Source: an uncultured Gammaproteobacteria bacterium
GTDB lineage: Bacteria > Patescibacteriota > Microgenomatia > UBA8517
NCBI GenBank assembly: GCA_964587425.1
Contig: CAZPLB010000003.1
Location: 60,763 to 124,762, forward strand
Direction: 5' to 3'
Length of the DNA stretch: 64,000 bases
The notes under the pieces are model-generated. The model ran no database searches. It saw nothing but the letters and a program-made list of their open reading frames with translations, and had not been told where the DNA came from. How positions within the stretch are numbered: the stretch's first letter is position 1; the number at the start of each line of letters is the position of its first letter. The position numbers and the translations under genes were made by a program. This document shows positions 5,517 to 51,919 of the stretch, piece after piece.

Positions 5517-7496
5517 ATGCAATTAATTATTGTTGAGTCGCCAACCAAAGCAAAGACACTTGGTAAATTTCTTGGAAAAGATTACCAGGTAGAGGCAACC
5601 ATGGGCCATATCAAAGATCTCCCCAAGTCAAAGCTTGGAATTGATATTGAAAATAATTTCAAACCAGATTATGTTGAAATGCCAAAGAAAGTTGATACCA
5701 TCAAAAATCTCCAAAAGATAGCTAAAAATGCAGAAGTGATATTTATAGCTACAGACCCTGATCGTGAGGGGGAAGCCATAGCAAGTCATGTCAAAGAAAT
5801 TGTAGGAAATGGTAAAACAAAACGTGTTACCTTCCATGAAATTACAAAGGAAGCTGTTGAAGATGCCATTGCCCACCCAAAGGAAATTGATGAAAACCTA
5901 GTTGATGCACAAATTGGAAGACGAGTGTTAGATCGCCTTGTTGGCTATGAACTCTCTCCCTTGCTATGGAGAAAAATAAGAAGAGGATTGTCAGCAGGCC
6001 GTGTTCAATCAGTTGCAGTAAGACTCATTGTTGAAAAAGAAAAAGAAATTGAAAAGTTTAAAGCAGAGGAATACTGGGAAATATTCTCTGTTGTGAAATC
6101 AAAAAAAGAATTCACAGTTCAGTTGATGAAGACAAAGGTCACAGATAAAAAGAAGGCAGATGAAGTAGTAGGAGACTTAAAAAAAGCAAAACACATCGTC
6201 TCAGGTGTTAAAAAAAGAGAAGTATCAAAAAATCCATATCCACCATTTACCACCTCCACCATGACCCAATCTGGAGCCAGAGTCTTTGGTTGGAGTGCAA
6301 AGAGAACAATGAGTGTAGCCCAGAAGCTATATGAAAAAGGTTTAATTACATATCACAGAACCGACTCAACAAATATTGCTGCTGTTGCCATTACAAAATC
6401 AAGAGATTTCATAAAAACAAATTATGGAGAAAAATATTTACCAGCCACTCCAAAGTTTTACAAAATAAAATCCAAAGTCGCACAGGAAGCCCATGAAGCA
6501 ATTCGTCCAACAAATATAAATAAAGAATTAAGTGAAAAAATCCCAGCTGATTTCAAAAAATTATATGACCTCATTTGGAGAAGATTTATGGCCTGCCAAA
6601 TGAACCCATCCATCTATGATGAAACGGCAATTGATGTCACTGCAAATGAATACAAATTAAGAGCCTCAGGCCAGATAATGAAATTTGATGGATGGAGAAA
6701 AGTAATTCCTTCAAAAATGACAGAAGAAGGCGGTATTGAATTGCCTGAAGTAAAAGCAGGTGAAGAACTCGAGCTTGTAAGAGTTGACTCATTTCAAAAG
6801 TTCACCCAACCGCCAGCTAGATTTAATGAGGCGTCCCTCATTAAAATGCTTGAAAAGTTAGGAATAGGGAGACCTTCAACATATGCCCCAATTATTACTA
6901 CAATTCAAATAAGGCAGTATGTAGAAAAAAAGGAGAGACAGTTTTTTGCAACCTCAGTCGGAATTGCAGTAACAGAATTTCTTCTTGAAAATTTCCCAGA
7001 AGTTCTGGATTACAAATTCACGGCCGATATGGAAGATGATTTAGATAAAGTTGCAAATGGAGAAAGAGACTGGCAGAAAGAAATAAAAACTTTCTACAAG
7101 CCATTTCACAAAAAACTAACAAGTGTCACCAAAAACTCAAAGAGGGTAGCTATCCCCACAGAAAAATTGGGGAGAGAGTGTCCTGAATGTAAAACGGCAA
7201 GAGAGGCAGGGGATAAAAATAGAAATGGGGAATTGGTAATTAGAGTTGGAAGATTTGGAAAATTTATTTCCTGCTCACTCTTTCCAGAATGCAAATACAC
7301 AGAGAAGTTCTTAGAAAAAATAGGGATGACATGCCCGGACTGTAAAGAGGGGGAAGTGATAGTTAAAAAAACTGGAAAAGGAAGACCATTCTTTGGCTGC
7401 AGCCGTTACCCAGATTGTAAATGGGCCAGTTGGAAAAATCCTAAGCTGGCCTCTCAGGATAATAAGTCTCCCAAAAAATCCGATAATGCAGTTTGA
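5517..7496 (+). CDS. topA: DNA topoisomerase I
   Basis: 659 aa; TOPRIM N-terminus 'IIVESPTKAKT', active-site Tyr region, C-terminal Cys4 zinc ribbons (CPECK...C...C, CPDCK...C...C); TGA stop. Confidence 0.9.
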   Translation: MQLIIVESPTKAKTLGKFLGKDYQVEATMGHIKDLPKSKLGIDIENNFKPDYVEMPKKVDTIKNLQKIAKNAEVIFIATDPDREGEAIASHVKEIVGNGKTKRVTFHEITKEAVEDAIAHPKEIDENLVDAQIGRRVLDRLVGYELSPLLWRKIRRGLSAGRVQSVAVRLIVEKEKEIEKFKAEEYWEIFSVVKSKKEFTVQLMKTKVTDKKKADEVVGDLKKAKHIVSGVKKREVSKNPYPPFTTSTMTQSGARVFGWSAKRTMSVAQKLYEKGLITYHRTDSTNIAAVAITKSRDFIKTNYGEKYLPATPKFYKIKSKVAQEAHEAIRPTNINKELSEKIPADFKKLYDLIWRRFMACQMNPSIYDETAIDVTANEYKLRASGQIMKFDGWRKVIPSKMTEEGGIELPEVKAGEELELVRVDSFQKFTQPPARFNEASLIKMLEKLGIGRPSTYAPIITTIQIRQYVEKKERQFFATSVGIAVTEFLLENFPEVLDYKFTADMEDDLDKVANGERDWQKEIKTFYKPFHKKLTSVTKNSKRVAIPTEKLGRECPECKTAREAGDKNRNGELVIRVGRFGKFISCSLFPECKYTEKFLEKIGMTCPDCKEGEVIVKKTGKGRPFFGCSRYPDCKWASWKNPKLASQDNKSPKKSDNAV

Positions 7497-14983: not shown

Positions 14984-15346
14984 ATGCCCGTTGAACAATT
15001 CACAAGCCCCAGAGGAGAGAGTCTAATAAAAGTAGTCACAAAACATGGCAAATATAATTGGGTTAACTACTATGAAAACATAGATGCTGCCCTGAAAGGA
15101 TACAAAGAATCGCGTAGTTATTTAAACTTCATGGTGATGCTGTCAGCAGGAATTTCCATTGGAACTATTGTTACAAGTCTAACAATGTTACTTAAAGATC
15201 CTAATGTTGGACCACTTCAAATTGCTGGCATTATCTCACCTATCGGACCTGGAATGATTGGAATTGCATCATTTTTTGACAGTAGAAGTAAACTAAATTC
15301 TGTCAAAAGTACAATACCGGAAATTGAGAACTTCAAAAATAGTTGA
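14984..15346 (+). CDS. Hypothetical membrane protein
   Basis: 120-aa ORF with one or two hydrophobic helices; no domain recognised. Confidence 0.45.
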   Translation: MPVEQFTSPRGESLIKVVTKHGKYNWVNYYENIDAALKGYKESRSYLNFMVMLSAGISIGTIVTSLTMLLKDPNVGPLQIAGIISPIGPGMIGIASFFDSRSKLNSVKSTIPEIENFKNS

Positions 15347-15376
15347 AAATTTAGTTGAAAGTGCTATAACAAATAA

Positions 15377-15646
15377 ATGAGACAAGAATTTGAAGGTTGG
15401 AGCTTAGAGGATCTCCAATTCTTTCGTAAAGAAGCAAGTGAAACAAAGTTATGGCTAGGGGCCTTTGAATTCTTGGGTCTTATGGGTACATCTGTAGTAT
15501 GTGCGGCTTCACGGGATCTTAAAACAGGAGTTATTTGCACGGTTTCACTTGCTACCGGTCTAATTGTTTCTGAAGGAGTACGTAAACTAGTAGGCAGAGA
15601 AATTGAAGCTGTTCAGGAAGCCATCCAAGAGACCATTGATAATTAG
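15377..15646 (+). CDS. Hypothetical small protein
   Basis: 89-aa ORF with one hydrophobic segment; no domain recognised. Confidence 0.4.
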   Translation: MRQEFEGWSLEDLQFFRKEASETKLWLGAFEFLGLMGTSVVCAASRDLKTGVICTVSLATGLIVSEGVRKLVGREIEAVQEAIQETIDN

Positions 15647-16901: not shown

Positions 16902-17455
16902 TGGACGAATTAGCTACACGTAAAAAGATGCAGGGGGCGCTCGATGCACTGCAGAAAATAATTGGAACCATTAGAACAGGCCGAGCTACTCCTGCTCTTC
17001 TTGAAAATCTTGAAGTAGGAGTCTACGGCGGAGCACAAAGACTAAGAATATTAGAGCTCGCAAGTGTCACAACTTCAGACCCGCAAACCCTTGTTGTTGA
17101 CCCATGGGACAAATCAGTTATCGGAGAAATAAAAAAAGGAATAGAAGCTGCAAATATTGGAATGAACCCGGTTATTGATGGAGAAATTATTAGAATCACT
17201 CTCCCAGCCCTAACTACAGAAGACAGAGAAAAGTATGTGAAACTTCTTTCGCAAAAACTTGAGGAATCAAAAATAGTAATTAGACAAATTAGAGGAGAGT
17301 TAATGAAAAATATAAAAAGAGAATTTGAAGAAAAGAAAATTAGAGAAGATGAAAAGTTTGCCTTTGAAAAAAACCTTCAAGTATTAACAGATGAATTCAT
17401 TGGAAAGATAGAAGAAATCGGAGCACGCAAAAAACAAGAGTTACTTCAAATTTAG
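16901..17455 (+). CDS. frr: Ribosome recycling factor
   Basis: 184 aa; 'LDALQKIIGTIRTGRATPALLENLEVGVYG' is typical RRF; start overlaps the tsf stop. Confidence 0.85.
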   Translation: MDELATRKKMQGALDALQKIIGTIRTGRATPALLENLEVGVYGGAQRLRILELASVTTSDPQTLVVDPWDKSVIGEIKKGIEAANIGMNPVIDGEIIRITLPALTTEDREKYVKLLSQKLEESKIVIRQIRGELMKNIKREFEEKKIREDEKFAFEKNLQVLTDEFIGKIEEIGARKKQELLQI

Positions 17456-17640
17456 TTAGCAGGGAAGTTCAAATGTTCTTCAACTCTCTTGATTCTTTTT
17501 TCGTGATTTAAGTGTGCTTTATCAAAGAAATCAATTGTTCGCTTTAGATCTCTTCTTATGATTCGAATATCATTACGAATAGGAACAAGTTTCTTATCAA
17601 ATAACTTTTCAATCGCCCCCAAATCCTGCTTTGTTAACAT
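17452..17640 (-). CDS. Small basic hypothetical protein (questionable)
   Basis: 62-aa ORF filling the frr-rseP gap on the opposite strand; no homology recognised. Confidence 0.3.
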   Translation of the reverse strand: MLTKQDLGAIEKLFDKKLVPIRNDIRIIRRDLKRTIDFFDKAHLNHEKRIKRVEEHLNFPAN

Positions 17641-17710: not shown

Positions 17711-18829
17711 ATGGACTTAACAAATATAATTATTGCCCTCAAAGTCTTCTTGGGCTTCTCATTAATAATTATTATTCACGAACTAGGACACTTCCTGGTA
17801 GCCAAAAAGTCAGGTGTTTTAGTTGAAGAGTTTGGTCTTGGACTTCCCCCCAGGATCTTTGGCAAAAAGATAGGGGAGACACTCTATTCTTTAAACTGGC
17901 TCCCTATTGGTGGTTTTGTAAAACTTCATGGTGAAACTGCAGAAGACAAAGTAGTTTACCCAGAACGTGCTTTTTCAAATAAATCAAAGAAAGTAAAAAT
18001 CGCAATAACACTGGCAGGGATAATTATGAACTTTGTTCTGGCAGTATTTGCATTTGCAATTGTTTACTCCTTTACTGGAATTGATACAGGAATAGTCGAT
18101 GTAAAAATTCTTGCAGTATCAAATGATACCCCAGCAGCAGCGTCTGGTGTAGTAAGTGGAGACATTGTTAAAAAGGTAGGAGATACGGCAATCTCCTCTG
18201 TTAGTGAATTCAAGGCAGAACTTGATAAATATAAAGGGAAAGCTGTAGTAGTTGAGTTCCTGCGTGGTGAAAACCTTGTTAGCCTAAAACTTACCCCCCG
18301 TCTTAATCCTCCAGAGGGTCAAGGAGCAATAGGAGTTGAGATAGCAGATGTCCCAGAAATTTACTTTCCACCAATTTGGCAAAGGCCATTTGTAGGAGCA
18401 TGGCATGGATTGAAGCAATCGCTTGCCCTAAGTAAAGCTGTAATATTGGGTCTCGGTGGAGCTGCAAAAAGCGTTGGCCAGGGTAAAGCACCAGAACATG
18501 TAGTTGGAGCCTTTGGACTTGTTTCGCTTCTGATTGAATTTGCAAAGATGGGGATAATACCTCTTCTTAACCTCATTGGAATAATTTCAATAAATCTTGC
18601 CATAATTAACGTTCTCCCAATTCCACCCCTTGATGGATCAAGAGTATTCATAACAATAGTGGAAGCGATAACCAGGAAAAAGATGACAGCAAACTTGGAG
18701 AGTAAAATCTACACAGCAGGTTTTATATTTATGATTGGCCTTATGCTTTTAGTAACTGCCCGTGAAATCCCGGCCTTCATTAAAGCAGGCTCCGTCTCAA
18801 AGTTTGTAGAAACCCTTATTCAAAAATAA
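17711..18829 (+). CDS. rseP: Site-2 zinc metalloprotease RseP
   Basis: 372 aa; 'HELGHF' zinc site in TM1, internal PDZ domain, C-terminal TM helices including 'LNLIGIISINLAIINVLPIPPLDG'. Confidence 0.85.
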   Translation: MDLTNIIIALKVFLGFSLIIIIHELGHFLVAKKSGVLVEEFGLGLPPRIFGKKIGETLYSLNWLPIGGFVKLHGETAEDKVVYPERAFSNKSKKVKIAITLAGIIMNFVLAVFAFAIVYSFTGIDTGIVDVKILAVSNDTPAAASGVVSGDIVKKVGDTAISSVSEFKAELDKYKGKAVVVEFLRGENLVSLKLTPRLNPPEGQGAIGVEIADVPEIYFPPIWQRPFVGAWHGLKQSLALSKAVILGLGGAAKSVGQGKAPEHVVGAFGLVSLLIEFAKMGIIPLLNLIGIISINLAIINVLPIPPLDGSRVFITIVEAITRKKMTANLESKIYTAGFIFMIGLMLLVTAREIPAFIKAGSVSKFVETLIQK

Positions 18830-19184
18830 TCTCTTCTTTCTTTTCATCAAAAGTTATTTTAAATTTATCAAAAACATCGGCTCTTCCAAGTAATGTAGGG
18901 ATCCCATCAATTTGTGCCCAGGCAACTCTGGCATCAAAGTCCTTTTCACCAATTTTCATTTTCAATTTTACATAAATAGCTTTAAGCCCACCTCCAACTC
19001 CACCCAAAGTTCTAGGCTTATACCTTTTCTCATCCATTCCAAGAGTTTTGCCAATTGAAAAGGGGATAACAGTTAAATCCGCTCCGGAATCAATTATTGA
19101 TCGAAAGCTATACCAATCACCGTTATTTTTTGCCAAGGATATAGTTGCAGTTGGTCTTCCTTCTAAATACTTAAAAACAATCAT
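18816..19184 (-). CDS. Retropepsin-like (clan AA) aspartic protease
   Basis: 122 aa; catalytic 'IIDSGADLTVIP' (D-S/T-G-A) and a glycine-rich flap 'GGVGGG'. Confidence 0.65.
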   Translation of the reverse strand: MIVFKYLEGRPTATISLAKNNGDWYSFRSIIDSGADLTVIPFSIGKTLGMDEKRYKPRTLGGVGGGLKAIYVKLKMKIGEKDFDARVAWAQIDGIPTLLGRADVFDKFKITFDEKKEEIIFE

Positions 19185-19429
19185 TAATATATGACTAATC
19201 TTCTTGGAGGTACTTGAACCAATAATATGTCTGACTCTGGATATATTATCTTGGCTTTTTTATGTACAACATCGGCTCTTCGTCCGTGAGCAACAATCTT
19301 TTTGTGTGAAATTGCAACCCAATCATTTTCCTTAAACTCAGAAAGATCTGCTTTCAAAGAAAATGCATAGTCAGGATCTTTTTTTGCCCAACTAATAACT
19401 TTTTTCTTTGTCATAACCAATTGTAGCAT
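19184..19429 (-). CDS. Small conserved partner protein of the retropepsin-like protease (DUF5678-like)
   Basis: 81 aa; stop overlaps the protease start (ATGA). The small-protein-plus-retropepsin pairing recurs in archaea and CPR. Confidence 0.45.
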   Translation of the reverse strand: MLQLVMTKKKVISWAKKDPDYAFSLKADLSEFKENDWVAISHKKIVAHGRRADVVHKKAKIIYPESDILLVQVPPRRLVIY

Positions 19430-19452: not shown

Positions 19453-20694
19453 ATGTGTGAAGTGTTACAATCTCAACTTTTTCCAAAAACCAGAAAAGAC
19501 GAAATAAAAGATGCTGACTCCATCAATCACCAGCTGCTAGTTAAGGCTGGATTTGTGAGGCAATTGATGGCAGGAGTCTATACATATCTTCCACTTGGCT
19601 TGAGAGTATTAAATAACATAACTGAAGTAGTAAGAGAAGAAATGGACACTCTTGGAGGAAAAGAAGTACTAATGCCTCTTCTTCATCCATCAGCAGTTTG
19701 GAAGCAAACAGGGGGATGGGATCATATAGATGTTCTTTTCAAAGTAGAAAGTAGAACAAAAAAAGATTATGCCTTGGCCCAAAGCCATGAAGAAGTAGTA
19801 ACACCTCTTGTAAAAGAATTCCTGCACACAACTAAAGACCTTCCACTAAGTATCTACCACATCCAGTGGAAGTTTAGAGATGAGTTGAGAAGTAAATCTG
19901 GAATATTAAGGGGCAGAGAATTCCTAATGAAAGATTTATACAGTTGGCATGCAGATCAAGATGATTTCGATGCGTTCTATGAAAAAGCAAAGAAAGCATA
20001 CTTAAACATCTTCAAAAGGCTTGGTCTTGAGGCAAGGGTAACAGAAGCAAGCGGAGGAGCATTCTCAGAAAAAATATCATATGAATTTGAAGTTCTAACC
20101 GATGCAGGAGAGGCCAACATCCTTTACTGTGACAATTGTGAATTCTGTGTAAATATTGATGATATTCAAAAATACAAGGAGGGCGAAACCTGTCCAAACT
20201 GTAAAAAAGGAAAATTAAAGCCATCCAAAGCTGCAGAAGTTGGAAATGTATTTGATTTGGGTCAAAAATACACCAAAGCATTTGATTTAACAATTACAAA
20301 TGAAAGCCAAGAAAAAATACACCCAATTATGGGTTGCTATGGAATTGGAATAAGTCGCACAATGGGTGTAATAGTAGAAAAGTTCCACGATGAAAAAGGC
20401 ATAATCTGGCCAAAGTCAGTTGCACCATTCCATGCTCACCTGATTGAACTAAAAGGAGCAAAAAATGCAAAAAAGATATACGAAGAACTCAAGGAAAAAG
20501 GAGTAGATGTTCTGTGGGATGACAGAGAATTAGGAGCAGGGGAGAAGTTTGCAGATGCAGACCTCATTGGAATTCCAGTCAGACTAGTAGTTTCAGAAAA
20601 GACAGGGGATAAAATTGAGTGGAAGGAAAGAAACGGAGACAAAGTAGAGCTACTGAGTTTGGATGAAGTGAGACAGAAGATAAAAGAATCCTAA
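19453..20694 (+). CDS. proS: Prolyl-tRNA synthetase (bacterial-type core without INS editing domain, with Cys4 zinc-ribbon insert)
   Basis: 413 aa; class-II motifs, 'HQLLVKAGFVRQL...GVYTYLPLGLRVL'; a Cys4 ribbon (CDNCEFC...CPNCKKG) lies where the editing domain normally sits; C-terminal anticodon-binding domain present. Confidence 0.85.
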   Translation: MCEVLQSQLFPKTRKDEIKDADSINHQLLVKAGFVRQLMAGVYTYLPLGLRVLNNITEVVREEMDTLGGKEVLMPLLHPSAVWKQTGGWDHIDVLFKVESRTKKDYALAQSHEEVVTPLVKEFLHTTKDLPLSIYHIQWKFRDELRSKSGILRGREFLMKDLYSWHADQDDFDAFYEKAKKAYLNIFKRLGLEARVTEASGGAFSEKISYEFEVLTDAGEANILYCDNCEFCVNIDDIQKYKEGETCPNCKKGKLKPSKAAEVGNVFDLGQKYTKAFDLTITNESQEKIHPIMGCYGIGISRTMGVIVEKFHDEKGIIWPKSVAPFHAHLIELKGAKNAKKIYEELKEKGVDVLWDDRELGAGEKFADADLIGIPVRLVVSEKTGDKIEWKERNGDKVELLSLDEVRQKIKES

Positions 20695-21183
20695 ATGGAG
20701 AATAGTCAAAGTAGAGAAATACTTATTCAAAGATCCAAACTTCGTCAAGAGATTCAAAAAGCTGTAATTGCTGAGGAGCAGGGTAATGTAGATCATTTCA
20801 ATCAACTTCTTTCAAATATAAATACAAAGGAGGGTGGGGAATGCCTCACTCTGGTAAAAAGTTCAAAAGAGGCTGGCAGAAAAGACTGTAGGGCGTTTAC
20901 TGCAGAAAAGCTTGGTTTAGATTTAGAAAATATCGCTCCAACAACATTGCAAAAAGTCGAAAACCCGAGGGTGAATAATATTGTAATGTATACAATTCCC
21001 GGAGAGCCACCTCACTGGGGAGTGGTCGTTGAAAAAGGAGAAAAACCAGAAGATATATGGGTTATGTCAAAATTTGGCAAGGCAGGTGGTGTTTATAAAC
21101 ACAAAATCTACGCAGGTATTCCAAGCCATGTTGGCGAAAACTATAAGTTTTTCAGTCCAAACATTGACACAGACCAATATTAA
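20695..21183 (+). CDS. Hypothetical protein with faint papain-like (NlpC/P60/CHAP) features
   Basis: 162 aa. 'KDCRAFTAEKLG' (cf. NlpC/P60 DCSGFV Cys motif) and 'IPGEPPHWGVVVEK' (His motif) in the right order. No signal peptide. Confidence 0.45.
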   Translation: MENSQSREILIQRSKLRQEIQKAVIAEEQGNVDHFNQLLSNINTKEGGECLTLVKSSKEAGRKDCRAFTAEKLGLDLENIAPTTLQKVENPRVNNIVMYTIPGEPPHWGVVVEKGEKPEDIWVMSKFGKAGGVYKHKIYAGIPSHVGENYKFFSPNIDTDQY

Positions 21184-21198
21184 AGTAAAAATAGACAA

Positions 21199-21909
21199 AT
21201 GGCAGACAAAACAACGGCTCGAACAGAAATAGATCCAAACGAAGCAACTAACGCATACTATGAATTTATGGACATCGGCGCAACTCTCGACAAAAAACAG
21301 CAACTTATTACCAAATACATGGATAATCTCCCAGGTTCTGATTTGGCAGGGTTAAAAAATAAGATGAAGTTAGTAACAGCCTCACAGGAATATAGAAATT
21401 TATTAGCCGAAGAAGAAAATTTAAAAAAACAAACTGATGAACACAGTAAAACAGGGAAACCAATTGAAGCTTTTTTGTCTGGCCCTCAAAAACTTACTTT
21501 AGAAAAGTTACATGGATTCGAGAATTGGGTACTTTGGGAAAAATACATCCACATAGCCAATAAAATGGGAGGAAGTAACGATGAGACTCTAGCCCAAAAA
21601 CAAGAGAAGGCAAAGGAATATATTAAAAACAATAATATTTCAACAAAACAAGTCATTTCAGATTTAGTGAAACTTATGCAATCAGATGTATATGCATCAA
21701 GGTGTAGTGTCGACGAGGAAACCGGTGTCAGCCGTCTCGATCCAAGACAAATACCTTCAAATAGAAAAAGTATTGAAAACATCAATAACATCAGAAATCT
21801 TATAGCACTTTATAATATCAACAGCACTCAAATATCAGCATCATTGGGTCATCCAATGGCAGAAAGAAGAGGCTTAGCACCAACCTCCAGGAAGTTCACA
21901 CCCCATTGA
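21199..21909 (+). CDS. Hypothetical protein
   Basis: 236-aa ORF with no domain recognised. Confidence 0.5.
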   Translation: MADKTTARTEIDPNEATNAYYEFMDIGATLDKKQQLITKYMDNLPGSDLAGLKNKMKLVTASQEYRNLLAEEENLKKQTDEHSKTGKPIEAFLSGPQKLTLEKLHGFENWVLWEKYIHIANKMGGSNDETLAQKQEKAKEYIKNNNISTKQVISDLVKLMQSDVYASRCSVDEETGVSRLDPRQIPSNRKSIENINNIRNLIALYNINSTQISASLGHPMAERRGLAPTSRKFTPH

Positions 21910-22224
21910 TTAATCTAAATCGAAAAGAGAGAAGTTACTAAAAACGACAGACTTGTCGTTATCTTTAAAAATTTCCAATATTTTTAATTCAGGGTCATAG
22001 CAAAATCTAATCAGCCCTCCTTTGTGCGACATAAAAACATCATAATATCTCAAGTTTTCGGGCATTTGTCCATCCAAAGCTTTTGACCATATCTCTATAT
22101 CGGCTAAATTTTCCACCTCTAAAGTATCAGGATCTATTCTATGACCCACAACATGTAGAATTCCGTTTTCTTCATATTTAACAACCCCATCATAACAATG
22201 TTTATCGAATCTTTCCTTAGCCAT
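21910..22224 (-). CDS. Hypothetical protein
   Basis: 104-aa ORF with no domain recognised. Confidence 0.4.
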   Translation of the reverse strand: MAKERFDKHCYDGVVKYEENGILHVVGHRIDPDTLEVENLADIEIWSKALDGQMPENLRYYDVFMSHKGGLIRFCYDPELKILEIFKDNDKSVVFSNFSLFDLD

Positions 22225-22276
22225 TGCCTATAATATCACACACCTCAGCTTTATCTCAGCTTTCACCCCATAGTAC

Positions 22277-22771
22277 TTGACAAGCCACGCTTTATATGTG
22301 ATACAATGCGGCATGGAAAACAAAGGTCAAAAACCACTTGGAAGCAGGCTTGAGACAGGCGCATGGGCTGCGGCTAAAGTTATCGACTTTGGAAAACCTA
22401 GGGTCAATGAAGATACTCGCAAGGCGGAAGATACTGCCGTAGAAGCCTATAAAGGCGAGGGGGGAAAGACCAGGTTTGTCCACTATCTAAATAGCCAAGT
22501 AAACGATTTACACATTCTACAAAGGCAAAAAGAAAGTGGCAAAGCCGAGGATATAATCTCTTATTTTATGGGTGTTGGTAGATTCTTGTGGAATCTGGAA
22601 AGTTGGCGTGATGCCGAGTTAATAGATCAAGATATCGTCAAGAGATTTGATCCAGGTCTAAAACGCCACGATATATCTTTAGCTGAAAAACCAACCGAGA
22701 CAACTGAAATAAAATCCAGGAATAAAGAGCGGTCAAGTAATGGACGTTTCAAGATCTTTAAACGTCTTTAA
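22277..22771 (+). CDS. Hypothetical protein (GC-rich 5' end)
   Basis: 164-aa ORF; a hand count of its first 100 nt gives ~49% GC, later ~37%. Confidence 0.45.
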   Translation: MTSHALYVIQCGMENKGQKPLGSRLETGAWAAAKVIDFGKPRVNEDTRKAEDTAVEAYKGEGGKTRFVHYLNSQVNDLHILQRQKESGKAEDIISYFMGVGRFLWNLESWRDAELIDQDIVKRFDPGLKRHDISLAEKPTETTEIKSRNKERSSNGRFKIFKRL

Positions 22772-23047
22772 CTCCGTCTTTCCTTCATTGTTAGAATAGC
22801 TAAAAGTACATTCGGTATTCTCCCTATCCCTTGAGAAATAGACAGTCATAGCCTTATCAATATTGGCTTCTAACCAGTCTCTTAATTCGCCGTCTGGAGA
22901 AAACTTAACAAGGACATAACCAGGTGTAGGTCGGCCACTATCTATATTGGTTCCTACTAATGCAATATTTCCTTCATCATTTCTAACCAAAGAACCTCTA
23001 TATTCACGAAAGTTATCAAACTCTGTCATATATAAATTATACCCCAT
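22733..23047 (-). CDS. Hypothetical protein
   Basis: The ORF runs to 23152, but the internal Met at 23047 avoids overlap with the HIT gene; 105 aa from that start. Confidence 0.4.
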   Translation of the reverse strand: MGYNLYMTEFDNFREYRGSLVRNDEGNIALVGTNIDSGRPTPGYVLVKFSPDGELRDWLEANIDKAMTVYFSRDRENTECTFSYSNNEGKTELKTFKDLETSIT

Positions 23048-23066
23048 GATATAATCATTTTGGAAT

Positions 23067-23387
23067 ATGGAAGAATGCATTTTCTGTAAAATTATCAAAA
23101 AAGAGCTCCCTGCAGAGTTCCTGTATGAAAGCCCTGAAATTGTTGCCTTCAAGGATATAAAACCATCAACCCCAATTCATATTCTAATTATTCCAACCAA
23201 ACACATTACAAACCTAAATGAGGCAAGTGAGGAAGACAGTGGAATATTAGGTAAAATCCAACTTGTTGCCCAAAAAATAGCCAGAGAACAAAAGATAGAA
23301 GATGGTTTCAAATTAACTACCAACAATGGTACCAAGGCTGGCCAGATTGTTATGCATCTTCATTACCACTTAATGGGTGGATTTTGA
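23067..23387 (+). CDS. HIT-family nucleotide hydrolase/transferase
   Basis: 106 aa; histidine triad 'HLHYHLMGG'; N-terminal 'CIFCKI'. Confidence 0.8.
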   Translation: MEECIFCKIIKKELPAEFLYESPEIVAFKDIKPSTPIHILIIPTKHITNLNEASEEDSGILGKIQLVAQKIAREQKIEDGFKLTTNNGTKAGQIVMHLHYHLMGGF

Positions 23388-34429: not shown

Positions 34430-35506
34430 TCAAGATGTAGCAAGTAGTTTTTTAATTGCCCGAGCTATCTTGTCAGAATCATGGCGTGCCAAACTTCTTG
34501 TTAATTTATCACTTTTTGGTTTTTCGTAAATTACATCCGAAATTAAGTTGCGCCTGCTTATCTTCATTTTTTTATATTTACTGTCCAAATCATCAATAAC
34601 AGGTTCCGATAATTCCTCTCTGTATTTTCTTAAAATCTTTGGAGGAATATTAATAGAATTGTTAATTAGACAGTAATTAACTCTATCTTTGCCAATATAT
34701 TTCTCGACTTCAGAAATAAAATCACTTGCCTTAAATTTTCCAGTTTGTCCAAACTTGGTCATAAGATTCATTACATAGATAACCTTTGCTTTAGATTTCT
34801 GTATTGCTTGGGCAATTCCATCAACCACAACATTGGAAAGAGTACTAGTGTAAAGATCTCCAGGACCCAATATTATGAGATCAGCAACTTTTATCTCATT
34901 TAGTGCTTCCTTGTTTGCTTCAACCTGCGGAATCACCTCCAAATTCACAATTCTATACTTCCCCTGCTTCCTATTAATTTCATCTATAGCGTGCTCGCCA
35001 AGAATCTGTTTCCCATTCTCATAGCGTGCAACTAGGTTAGTTTTTTCAAATGTGACAGGAATAACTTTTCCTTTTACTTCAAAAATCTTGCATGTTTCCT
35101 CAATTGCCTTTTCCTGATCACCACCATAAATATCACTCAATGCTGCCATGAATAAGTTTCCAAAAGTCATCCCAGAGATTCCAGTTCCAGAACTATACCT
35201 GTATGTAAAAAGTTTCCTCAAAACCTCATCTGATTCATTCGAAGCAAGCGCCAGAATACATTGCCTAACATCAGAAGTGGGGAGTAATCCAAACTCATCT
35301 CGTATAACTCTGTTGCTCCCTCCATCATCCATCATGGAAACAATAACACTTAAATCAAATTCAGGATATTTTTTTAAACCACTCAAAACTGTGAAGGTTC
35401 CAGTTCCACCGCCAATTGTAACCACCTTCAACTTTCTCAAGGTAAATATAAGTATAGCAATCAAGTCAATATATCTGGTAAAATACAAGTCCATGTTTAA
35501 AAACAA
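34430..35506 (-). CDS. yvcK: YvcK/CofD-like gluconeogenesis-factor family protein (UPF0052); true start probably downstream of 35506
   Basis: 'LKVVTIGGGTGTFTVLSGLKKY...VIVSMMDDGGSNRVIRDEFGLLPTSDVRQCILALAS' matches the YvcK/CofD signature. The annotated start would overlap the divergent MFS start, so it likely uses a later (possibly non-ATG) start. Confidence 0.7.
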   Translation of the reverse strand: MFLNMDLYFTRYIDLIAILIFTLRKLKVVTIGGGTGTFTVLSGLKKYPEFDLSVIVSMMDDGGSNRVIRDEFGLLPTSDVRQCILALASNESDEVLRKLFTYRYSSGTGISGMTFGNLFMAALSDIYGGDQEKAIEETCKIFEVKGKVIPVTFEKTNLVARYENGKQILGEHAIDEINRKQGKYRIVNLEVIPQVEANKEALNEIKVADLIILGPGDLYTSTLSNVVVDGIAQAIQKSKAKVIYVMNLMTKFGQTGKFKASDFISEVEKYIGKDRVNYCLINNSINIPPKILRKYREELSEPVIDDLDSKYKKMKISRRNLISDVIYEKPKSDKLTRSLARHDSDKIARAIKKLLATS

Positions 35507-49825: not shown

Positions 49826-50338
49826 ATGACTAACCCAACACAAACAATTGACTGGAAAGGGGATAAGTTTGTAGTTGAATGGATAAAAACTAATTCTCTT
49901 AAAGGTATGACTCCAATTAATCAGGTGTATGGTGTTTGCTTTAATGACAAAGACGAGATCTTGATTGCCAGAAAAGAAGGCAGAGGATACTGGATAGTTC
50001 CAGGAGGACATCCAGAGAAGAATGAAACTACAGAGGAAACTTTAGAACGTGAAATGATTGAGGAAGCTGATGTAAAGATTAAAAACATCAAAGTTCTTGG
50101 AGCACAAAAAGTATATCCAGAAGGAAAACCAAAAGAATATTTTTACCAAGTAAGATGTATTTGTGAAGTTGATAAAATTCTACCTCAAACCCCAGACCCA
50201 GATGATAATAAAAACTGGGAGAGAAAGTTTGTACCAACAGATAAAATAACTAAATTTGTTAAATGGGGGGTAATTGGAAATGCAATGTTCAAAGATGCAA
50301 TTAAACTTCATGATTTATCTCTGGAAGTGTTAAAATAG
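49826..50338 (+). CDS. NUDIX hydrolase (second, divergent)
   Basis: 170 aa; Nudix box 'GGHPEKNETTEETLEREMIEEADV'. Confidence 0.7.
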   Translation: MTNPTQTIDWKGDKFVVEWIKTNSLKGMTPINQVYGVCFNDKDEILIARKEGRGYWIVPGGHPEKNETTEETLEREMIEEADVKIKNIKVLGAQKVYPEGKPKEYFYQVRCICEVDKILPQTPDPDDNKNWERKFVPTDKITKFVKWGVIGNAMFKDAIKLHDLSLEVLK

Positions 50339-50342
50339 CTTC

Positions 50343-50927
50343 ATGGATGTTTTTGAATACAAAATAAAATTGGCAGAAGAAATAATAGAGGAACGAGAGT
50401 TTGTGAATAATAAATATCTATCTTTAAAGGTGGAAACTATAAAACAGTTTCGTGATCTAATTATTCAATTCGTTATAATATCTTCAGGTATAATTGGCTT
50501 TACCTTACCGGTTTTTGACAAAACACAACTAGTAAAAAATAAAACATTTTTAATTGGTGGTCTAGCGGAATTATTAATCATTGTTTTATTTGGATTTTAC
50601 TATTTAAAAAATATTCTTGAAAAGGAAAATGATTCGCTAGAAAAAGACAGTAAAGCATTTAACGAATATCTCGATAAAAAAAGAGATGCTAAAATAGAAT
50701 TTATAAAAAGTTTAAATGGCCACACCAAATCTGATGCATTTAAAATTTACGAGGAAGAAAACCACCAAGCACTTATCGTATTAAATAACAAAGTAAAAAC
50801 CCGACCTTCACAAAAAGATTATGTTCTAGACTTGGTATTTATTGCTTTCTTTCTCGGCCTCGCTTTAATTGTTTTATCTCTAACAGATTTTAATTTTTAT
50901 TTTCTATTAAAAATATTTAATCTATGA
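50343..50927 (+). CDS. Hypothetical membrane protein
   Basis: 194 aa, ~3 TM helices; no domain recognised. Confidence 0.45.
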   Translation: MDVFEYKIKLAEEIIEEREFVNNKYLSLKVETIKQFRDLIIQFVIISSGIIGFTLPVFDKTQLVKNKTFLIGGLAELLIIVLFGFYYLKNILEKENDSLEKDSKAFNEYLDKKRDAKIEFIKSLNGHTKSDAFKIYEEENHQALIVLNNKVKTRPSQKDYVLDLVFIAFFLGLALIVLSLTDFNFYFLLKIFNL

Positions 50928-51919
50928 ATCTGAAAGTAGGTATAGTAGGTCTCCCAAATGTAGGAAAGTCCACTCTCTTTAATGCACTTCTAAAAAGACA
51001 AGTTGCATATGTAGCAAACTTTCCATTTGCTACAGTTGAACCAAATGTTGGCATTGTTCCAGTTCCTGACAATCGTCTTCAAAAACTATCTGAAGCAGTT
51101 AAAACTTCTGAAAATACACCGGATCTTCCTCCAGAAGTTCCAGCTACTGTAGAGTTTGTAGATATTGCAGGAATAATTAAAGGAGCAAGTAAGGGTGAAG
51201 GATTGGGAAATAAATTTCTGAGCCACATTAGAGAAGTTGATGCCATCTGCTATGTTCTTCGTGGTTTTAGTGACCCAGACATTATTAAAGAGGGAAGTAC
51301 TGACCCAAAGTCTGATTTTGAAATATTAAAAACAGAACTTGACCTAGCTGACTTTGAAACAGTTGAAAAACACAAAACAAAAAAGAACCAAACACAAGAA
51401 GAACTACCATTATTTAGTAAAAAACCATTCCTTGTTGTAATTAATGTTGATGAAAATGATTTAAAAGATGCAACCAAAATCGAAGTAGAGTATGCTTCAA
51501 AACTTGGAATTCACACCCACCAGGTTATAGCAATCTCTGCCAAAATTGAATCCGAACTCTCAGATCTCACCGAAGGTGATGGAAAAAAATATCTTGAAGA
51601 CCTTGGGGTAAAAGAATCAGGGTTAGAGCGGCTCATCAAAAAAGCATTTGAAACTCTTGGATTAATTACATTTCTAACAGCGGGCGTTAAAGAAGTACGT
51701 GCATGGACCATTCCTGTAGGAATAGATGCTCAAAATGCAGCTGGTGTTATTCACACTGACTTCATTAAAAAATTCATAAAAGCAGATGTTGTTGACTATA
51801 AAGATTTTGTTGAACTGGAAGGGTGGAAAAATTGTCGTGAAAAAGGCAAAGTAAGAAGTGAAGGTCGTGACTATATTATGAAAGACGGAGATGTTGTAGA
51901 GTTCAAGATTGGGAGCTGA
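50924..51919 (+). CDS. ychF: Ribosome-binding ATPase YchF/Ola1 (short form)
   Basis: 331 aa; '[18 protein letters not shown]', '[13 protein letters not shown]', C-terminal TGS domain. Confidence 0.85.

Follow-up and report, generated by a model that had tools for sequence, protein, structure and literature searches.

A candidate native accessory gene cluster in the variable slot between proS and a HIT-family gene of a Patescibacteria genome

Between proS and a HIT-family gene, on a 64,000-nt stretch of contig CAZPLB010000003.1 (the whole stretch analysed here, hereafter the window), lie five small open reading frames (ORFs), ORF1 to ORF5. The organism belongs to the Patescibacteria and is represented by a Microgenomates/Woesebacteria-like metagenome-assembled genome (MAG). 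An earlier note on this DNA had suspected an acquired cassette, possibly a toxin/immunity-type module or a phage remnant. We propose instead that these genes form a native, lineage-specific and fast-evolving accessory cluster, in a slot that has been repeatedly remodelled within the clade, and we put the probability of this reading at about 60%. The evidence comes from the contents of the slot in related genomes, from a diverged version of the cluster in a second organism, and from the host-like composition of the genes.

A scan of the GTDB species genomes with the prolyl-tRNA synthetase (ProRS) yielded 80 loci of 49-77% identity, nearly all of them in Patescibacteria MAGs. As seen by local tblastn, the Microgenomates/Woesebacteria-like relatives share the gene order rseP-proS-slot-HIT-yqeY-ybeY-dnaX-ybaB, with 4 nt to 3.3 kb between proS and the conserved gene that comes next. 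The slot is essentially empty in seven relatives (L004, L011, L012 and L052-L055), where HIT follows proS within ~40 nt; this answers a check suggested by the earlier note, namely whether the two genes are directly adjacent in relatives. It is occupied by CofD/YvcK in seven loci (L006, L009, L056, L059, L062, L079 and L080), by GlmS together with CofD/YvcK in L002 and L060, by GlmS in L003 and L007, and by other genes, such as adenosine kinase or DHH-like genes, in other relatives. None of the five ORFs had a tblastn match (E < 1e-3) at any of the 80 proS loci, and hidden Markov models (HMMs) of their families likewise found none there.

Since cofD/yvcK fills the slot in close as well as distant relatives, it is the likely ancestral occupant and, judging from these gene orders, was likely relocated later in the lineage of the window, where it now lies at 34442-35386 on the minus strand, ~12 kb downstream of the slot. 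Its displacement to the opposite strand at this distance suggests that the DNA was rearranged locally. The 64-kb window does not contain glmS, which adjoins cofD/yvcK in the slot of some relatives. The locus thus resembles genomic islets, the variable slots between core genes, in having conserved flanks, varying content and lineage-specific orphan genes. Unlike typical islets, it is very small (2.4 kb), has no integrase, tRNA or repeats, is host-like in composition, and has for the most part housekeeping genes, not mobile or defence genes, as its alternative contents. In L080, two unannotatable ORFs (264 and 122 aa; positions 6115-7293 of that locus) stand behind cofD/yvcK in the slot.

Homologs of the cluster are few. 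An exhaustive phmmer search, with the five concatenated ORFs against 1.84 billion cluster-representative proteins, retrieved P0007 (106 aa, 51% identity to ORF5, E=3e-16), P0008 (149 aa, 42-46% identity to ORF4, E=1e-15) and P0010 (149 aa, 29% identity to ORF1, E=2e-7), and no match to ORF2 or ORF3. A fourth candidate, P0009 (592 aa, tandem repeats), owed its score to ten repeated weak matches and was discarded as an artefact. Clustering at 90% identity left all five ORFs as singletons. Profile searches seeded with the small-protein family (see below) and with the ORF1 family returned only their input sequences. The single metagenome match to the ORF5 family (L087) proved to be a false positive, a high-GC NHL/beta-propeller-like protein with only 'KFSPDGE' in common.

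P0008 and P0007 are adjacent on one Logan contig, L082 (3314 bp, 37.8% GC), which carries a second version of the cluster. Over its first 62 nt the contig matches the 3' end of the window proS with 76% identity, so that this version, too, directly follows proS. Six genes, which make one pair more than the window has, alternate in strand along the contig: 118 aa (+), 93 aa (-), 149 aa (+), 106 aa (-), 360 aa (+) and 118 aa (-). The 149-aa and 106-aa genes, which overlap by 4 nt, encode P0008 and P0007, the orthologs of ORF4 and ORF5; the last gene encodes P0011, which matches ORF3 in a pairwise comparison (E=2e-6), and the 360-aa protein matches ORF2 over 112 residues (pairwise E=8e-4). The clear orthologs share only about 46-50% protein identity with their window counterparts, which argues for long residence of the cluster in the slot. 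Behind the last small gene of L082 and a second copy of a bidirectional promoter block (described below), the final ~240 nt of the contig (3077-3314) are AT-rich (29.5% GC) and contain neither HIT nor an ORF of at least 50 aa.

The slot of a further relative, L010 (CAZCXV010000004.1, 11299-12513), holds genes of 83 aa (+), 197 aa (+) and 139 aa (-), with a convergent overlap of 44 nt. A 22-residue motif (KRYD..L.KH.IS) is shared with ORF4 (hhalign P=0.0047), along with partial promoter similarity, and the overlapping 83-aa and 197-aa ORFs, which are in different frames, might represent one frameshifted and very diverged ORF4-like gene. For the 139-aa gene we saw no match to the small-protein family, and we list L010 as a possible third occurrence only.

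ORF2 to ORF5 are organised as two convergent pairs (Table 1), in each of which a larger basic protein on the plus strand faces a small acidic one on the minus strand: ORF2 with ORF3 (pair A), their stop codons abutting, and ORF4 with ORF5 (pair B), whose 3' ends share 39 nt. The earlier note had rightly seen a convergent overlap here, and this feature is not peculiar to the cluster. The small proteins are ~100 aa long, acidic and beta-rich, and ORF3, ORF5, P0007 and P0011 can be aligned over their full length. The profile of the ORF5 pair of sequences matches that of the ORF3 pair (hhalign P=0.0028), and a search of 7516 ORFs with the ORF3+P0011 profile (hmmsearch) returned P0007 as the best non-self match (E=0.17). 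In such searches each of the two profiles ranks the other's sequences first, or nearly so, among its non-self matches. From these alignments, ORF3 and ORF5 are probably paralogs, and members of one family with P0007 and P0011. Between the families of the larger proteins ORF2 and ORF4 we detected no similarity. The ORF4 family has a conserved C-terminal motif, ESWR.AELID..KRF..L.RH..SL.E.PTE.T.IKS. An AlphaFold2 (AF2) model of ORF5, built on the four-sequence alignment, reached a predicted local distance difference test score (pLDDT) of 76 and a predicted template modelling score (pTM) of 0.64, a moderate confidence, and consists of three strands, a helix and four strands.

Conservation between the window and L082 extends to three non-coding blocks: the ORF2 promoter, the region between ORF3 and ORF4, and a 22-nt bidirectional block. 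The ORF2 promoter block is kept in L082 just past proS (TTGACA...TAA[A/G]AAT...ACAAATGGCAGA), and together with the first four codons of ORF2 (ATGGCAGAYA) it matches the 118-aa (+) gene that opens the L082 cluster. In the region between the divergent ORF3 and ORF4, the ORF4 promoter consists of TTGACA at 22277-22282 and the extended -10 element TGaTACAAT at 22299-22307, 5 nt before the ATG, and the ORF3 promoter on the minus strand has a TG-extended TATTAT that also ends 5 nt before its ATG. This region is 84% identical to L082 positions 768-809 over a 43-column blastn alignment, in which conservation covers the -35 element, the extended -10 element and the 5-6 nt that separate the latter from the ATG. 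The third block, AAATTATACCCCATGATATAAT (22 nt), presents a TATAAT on each strand; it occurs once in the window and twice in L082, where the copies flank the pair of the 360-aa (+) and 118-aa (-) genes.

Table 1. Features of the slot between proS and the HIT-family gene (window coordinates)
Feature	Position	Strand	Description
proS (class II prolyl-tRNA synthetase)	19453-20694	+	Pfam tRNA-synt_2b, HGTP_anticodon; conserved left anchor of the slot
ORF1	20695-21183	+	162 aa, isoelectric point (pI) 6.4; ATG right after the proS stop (TAAATG)
ORF2 promoter-like site	21164-21192	+	TTGACA, 17 nt, AAAAAT; within the ORF1 3' end; ends 6 nt before the ATG
ORF2	21199-21909	+	236 aa, basic, pI 8.4; larger member of convergent pair A
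ORF3	21910-22224	-	104 aa, acidic, pI 4.8; small member of pair A
ORF3/ORF4 divergent promoter region	22225-22312	.	Between the two start codons
GC peak	~22250-22500	+	Takes in the ORF4 promoter and the gene's 5' half
ORF4	22313-22771	+	152 aa, basic, pI 9.4; larger member of pair B
ORF5	22733-23029	-	98 aa, acidic, pI 4.6; small member of pair B
ORF5/HIT bidirectional promoter block	23030-23066	.	Compact; 22-nt motif at 23034-23055
HIT-family gene	23067-23387	+	Pfam HIT, E=1.5e-24; conserved right anchor; followed by yqeY, ybeY, dnaX and ybaB

With a separate -10 element placed 5-6 nt ahead of each ATG, ORF2 to ORF5 would give leaderless or near-leaderless mRNAs. A -10-like hexamer is also found 3-10 nt before the ATG of 19 of the 87 window genes, and of 11 of the 37 genes that lead a transcription unit; a Shine-Dalgarno-like motif precedes 10 of the 87. 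These counts, taken from motif positions, suggest widespread leaderless or near-leaderless translation in this genome. Eight of the 13 convergent gene pairs in the window overlap or lie no more than 2 nt apart, leaving no space for intrinsic terminators; between 20400 and 23500 we found two terminator-like sites, the number expected by chance. Leaderless-type promoters, scarce Shine-Dalgarno-like sequences and overlapping convergent ends are thus traits of the whole window and not specific to the cluster. Our search of the literature on leaderless genes and on orphan gene clusters in Patescibacteria turned up nothing relevant.

All five ORFs are real protein-coding genes. They are present, on the strands +,+,-,+,-, in the ORF listing and in the raw sequence as first noted, and independent gene calls on an identical Logan contig place their starts at the same positions. 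The lengths first given for ORF1 to ORF3 stand, and two were revised: ORF4 is shortened from 164 to 152 aa, as the TTG at 22277 opens the TTGACA -35 box and the start is the ATG at 22313, and ORF5 from ~105 to 98 aa, with its ATG at 23029 and a TATAAT 6 nt upstream. Under a codon-usage model with 50 long ORFs from the window as reference genes, the five ORFs score within the host range, at 0.14-0.29 per codon (reference genes, 0.229 +/- 0.077), and shadow ORFs of the other strand have negative scores. Comparison with the orthologs gives mismatch rates by codon position of 0.38/0.37/0.65 for ORF4 and 0.32/0.27/0.61 for ORF5, and ~60% of the identical amino acids are encoded by different codons. 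Divergence at third positions is thus far above that at positions 1 and 2, which indicates purifying selection on both proteins.

As the earlier note had stated, the genes show no known motif: searches of Pfam, PHROGs, PADLOC, NCBIfam and PDB sequences gave nothing significant, and PDB profile searches were equally empty. The strongest score in Pfam, PHROGs, PADLOC or NCBIfam was that of ORF1 to DUF7509 (E=0.0014), which fails the cutoff. PADLOC-DB gave no match to any of the five at E up to 1, and PHROGs none below E=0.018. For the pair members and their L082 homologs, Pfam, PADLOC and NCBIfam held no toxin, antitoxin, immunity or defence family, only chance matches with E of 0.026-0.18, and ORF2 to ORF5 were found to be without a secretion signal or toxin-delivery domain.

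We propose that the cluster arose in, or entered, the common ancestor of the window and L082 lineages, and that it would afterwards have diverged and been reshuffled, possibly via recombination between the conserved promoter blocks. In this scheme each small acidic protein may bind its basic partner and restrain or regulate it, the two acting as a conflict module, whether toxin/immunity-like or of another type. The idea of restraint draws on the charge complementarity of the partners, their conserved pairing, the duplication and reshuffling of the pairs, their very fast divergence and their patchy distribution. Type II toxin-antitoxin and polymorphic toxin-immunity pairs similarly combine a larger basic with a small acidic protein, in modules that are multiplied, reshuffled, fast-evolving and patchily distributed in variable slots. 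A conflict-type two-protein module in which the acidic protein restrains the basic one is our best guess at a function, at low confidence. Still more doubtful is a bolder extension, in which such pairs would form a new Patescibacteria-specific class: convergent leaderless pairs in which a small acidic OB-like protein inhibits a basic effector, toxin-immunity-like or anti-phage in function, swapping gene bodies between promoter blocks at a fixed slot by proS.

Patescibacteria have small genomes with a large share of genes of unknown function, and this locus details how such orphans can sit in a genome: in a fixed, remodelled slot, with native composition and their own leaderless-type promoters, diverging among relatives to the limit of detection. 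Should the genes indeed form interaction or conflict pairs, the known toxin-immunity and defence systems of these episymbiotic bacteria would be joined by a gene-pair architecture of a new kind; otherwise the locus is still a useful negative, being no phage remnant, recent transfer or RNA gene. The protein families are newly described, with two to four sequences each; orphan genes in a variable Patescibacteria slot are a familiar phenomenon.

ORF1 stands apart from the conserved module, since it is absent from L082 and its homolog P0010, the only other known member of its family, is located elsewhere in another genome, where it lies between rnhB and secE (four short contigs). At its 3' end, where the ORF2 promoter is embedded, ORF1 aligns with the 3' end of proS and the promoter region in L082, which hints that ORF1 was inserted in the window lineage. 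Since ORF1 begins at the proS stop codon, the two are probably co-translated. The earlier note had seen in it a faint NlpC/P60-like Cys...His arrangement. What holds of this is the pair of residues itself: C65 and H107 are conserved in P0010, as are the surrounding K-D-C65, P-H107, S125-K126-x-G and G-x-V-Y-x-H136, and when the ORF1 family is compared by hhalign with the E. coli Spr and NlpC catalytic domains, C65 and H107 fall in register with their catalytic Cys and His (P=0.0017). What does not hold is membership in the family by profile, as none passes the cutoff; P0010 reaches Amidase_6 over the His motif at E=0.24, with 11.9 bits against a cutoff of 23.2. Twelve positions past the His, where E. 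coli Spr has its third catalytic residue, ORF1 has E119 and P0010 has His, a comparison of two sequences only that falls outside the hhalign block. Like NlpC/P60 domains (PF00877; related to Amidase_6, PF12671, and CHAP), ORF1 has a 'DC' Cys, a His ~42 residues further on and a hydrophobic strand (PHWGVVV); unlike them, it carries no signal peptide, lipobox or cell-wall-binding domain, and has helical N-terminal ~45 residues instead. A single-sequence AF2 model of ORF1 (mean pLDDT 43) did not have the quality needed to search for its fold. As a tentative assignment, suggested by motif and position, ORF1 may be a cysteine hydrolase or acyltransferase of NlpC/P60-like type that acts in the cytoplasm and is coupled to proS in translation.

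Several observations weigh against the native-cluster reading or its parts. There is one clear second occurrence, on a 3.3-kb contig whose taxonomy rests on a ProRS fragment of 27 residues (19/27 identical) and on GC content, and a related cassette may have been inserted independently into the same slot in two lineages. The counterparts of ORF2 and ORF3 are weak, being significant as single pairwise tests and absent library-wide. Their orthology is also tangled, since the first L082 pair (118+, 93-), their positional counterpart, has only the promoter and first codons (MAD..., MAKER...) in common with ORF2 and ORF3. The idea of conflict pairs is opposed by the convergent orientation and by the lack of any family match: unlike toxin-antitoxin and toxin-immunity operons, ORF2/ORF3 and ORF4/ORF5 are convergent, have separate promoters and are not co-transcribed, and the same is true in L082. 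No structural neighbour of the ORF5 model reaches significance (Foldseek against PDB, E >= 0.025 and template modelling (TM) score <= 0.37; against BFVD, E >= 0.019). As to ORF1, the HHsuite probability of its match to Spr/NlpC is 15.6%, with reference sequences that were checked against PF00877 (E=2.5e-38 for Spr and 3e-35 for NlpC), and searches found no match to a Pfam family of the NlpC/P60 superfamily at E up to 1 and no NCBIfam match past the cutoff.

The alternative that survives best is that the five genes encode ordinary lineage-specific cellular proteins, for example nucleic-acid-binding, ribosome-associated or replication-associated accessory factors, which would play no part in conflict or toxicity and would evolve fast only as Patescibacteria proteins generally do. 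The neighbours of the slot are indeed housekeeping genes of translation and replication (proS, ybeY, dnaX, ybaB), ORF4 and ORF5 are under purifying selection, and other orphan clusters exist in the window (14984-15646, 17452-17640 and 18816-19429). The predicted ORF5 structure has an OB-fold-like order of elements, and its top neighbours, all weak, are OB-fold/SSB proteins, PCNA and clamp subdomains. Accessory or conflict genes are the more usual setting for duplication and reshuffling of pairs between two genomes and for divergence as fast as that of ORF2 and ORF3, and the cluster is not essential, since it is missing from nearly all relatives. Set against the reading of a native accessory cluster, we find this alternative unlikely; as to function, it is the main rival of the conflict idea.

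An origin as a recently acquired mobile cassette, or as a decayed fragment of a prophage or plasmid, between proS and HIT would account for the absence of the five ORFs from the 80 relatives' proS loci and for the seven relatives with adjacent proS and HIT, as well as for small orphan genes on alternating strands and for the direct repeats of the 22-nt promoter block around one pair in L082. The composition argues otherwise. GC content is 0.375 in the cluster and 0.374 in the window, placing the cluster at the 51st percentile of windows of the same size, and codon usage is likewise indistinguishable from that of the host; composition, which the earlier note had taken as a sign of acquisition, is therefore no such sign. 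The same applies to the strand switches, as alternation and tight convergent packing are kept in L082 and are common genome-wide, as are the leaderless-type promoters and overlapping convergent ends. No integrase, transposase or phage structural gene was found in the cluster, no tRNA in the 64-kb window, and no flanking repeats beyond short chance matches. A 29-nt direct repeat (D1) shared by ORF1 and ORF4 was dismissed as chance, its copies lying in different reading frames. Searches of phage and plasmid sequences (tblastn against INPHARED and PLSDB) gave no match, and scans of IMG/VR with ORF1, ORF2, ORF4 and the ORF5 family recovered no relative, in line with the PHROGs and PADLOC results above. 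A diverged version in the same slot of a second organism, at the protein identity given above, also speaks against recent arrival. The picture that the earlier note had set against acquisition, orthologs of all five genes in conserved order and with normal composition, is found in half: composition is normal and one organism has two clear and two weak counterparts, but nearly all sampled relatives are without the cluster and ORF1 is separate. Thus, the cassette hypothesis is right about a lineage-specific content in a variable slot, and goes wrong over the host-like composition, the missing mobile, phage or plasmid signal and the diverged copy in L082; we judge it very unlikely.

Of the elevated GC that had been noted for the region, ~250 nt in the 5' half of ORF4 are all that remains; averaged over its full length, the region is at the level of the window (37.5%). 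The segment 22300-22499 reaches a GC of 0.485, the top 200-nt value noticed in the window. Since such peaks in AT-rich genomes are often RNA genes, one might suppose that some of the ORFs are not genes and that 22250-22500, instead of opening ORF4, encodes a structured non-coding RNA. The peak has no match in Rfam, whether the gathering threshold or a cutoff of E up to 1 is applied, and contains no tRNA or transfer-messenger RNA (tmRNA), and its folding z-scores (-1.06 and -0.59; -0.85 for the L082 ortholog) give no signal of RNA structure. GC by codon position is 0.59/0.43/0.41 within the peak and 0.46/0.35/0.33 in the remainder of ORF4; the N-terminal half of the protein is rich in Gly, Ala and Arg, and the GC surplus there is that of codon positions 1 and 2. 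As the ortholog on L082 has a similar peak (0.465-0.475), we conclude that the peak is a property of the encoded ORF4 protein, and it is neither foreign DNA nor an RNA gene. With ORF4 kept full-length in P0008 under third-position divergence, and with five ORFs that score as coding over shadow ORFs that score negative, the RNA hypothesis is hardly credible. At the other extreme of composition, 50001-51000 is the lowest-GC kilobase of the window (29.6%; mean 37.4%).

The proS neighbourhoods of many MAG records titled 'uncultured Gammaproteobacteria', 'uncultured Pseudomonadales' or 'uncultured Candidatus Saccharibacteria bacterium' (for example L003, L005, L007, L010 and L011) are Patescibacteria-like, and these titles look like mislabelling. 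Outside the slot, the orphans at 14984-15646 and 17452-17640 (120, 89 and 62 aa) lie between conserved genes and have no Pfam match; few or none of the relative loci have a counterpart, and the 62-aa ORF matches a single distant one. The genes at 18816-19429 (minus strand) are a second lineage-specific insert, between rseP and proS. They have no match at the 80 relative loci, several of which (for example L002, L004, L008, L011 and L067) show an rseP-proS gap of ~17-30 nt. One encodes a 122-aa retropepsin-like aspartyl protease (RVP, E=2.6e-4; Asp_protease_2, E=3e-4) and overlaps by 1 nt with the gene for an 81-aa DUF5678 protein (E=6e-7), so that the two may form a two-gene accessory module.

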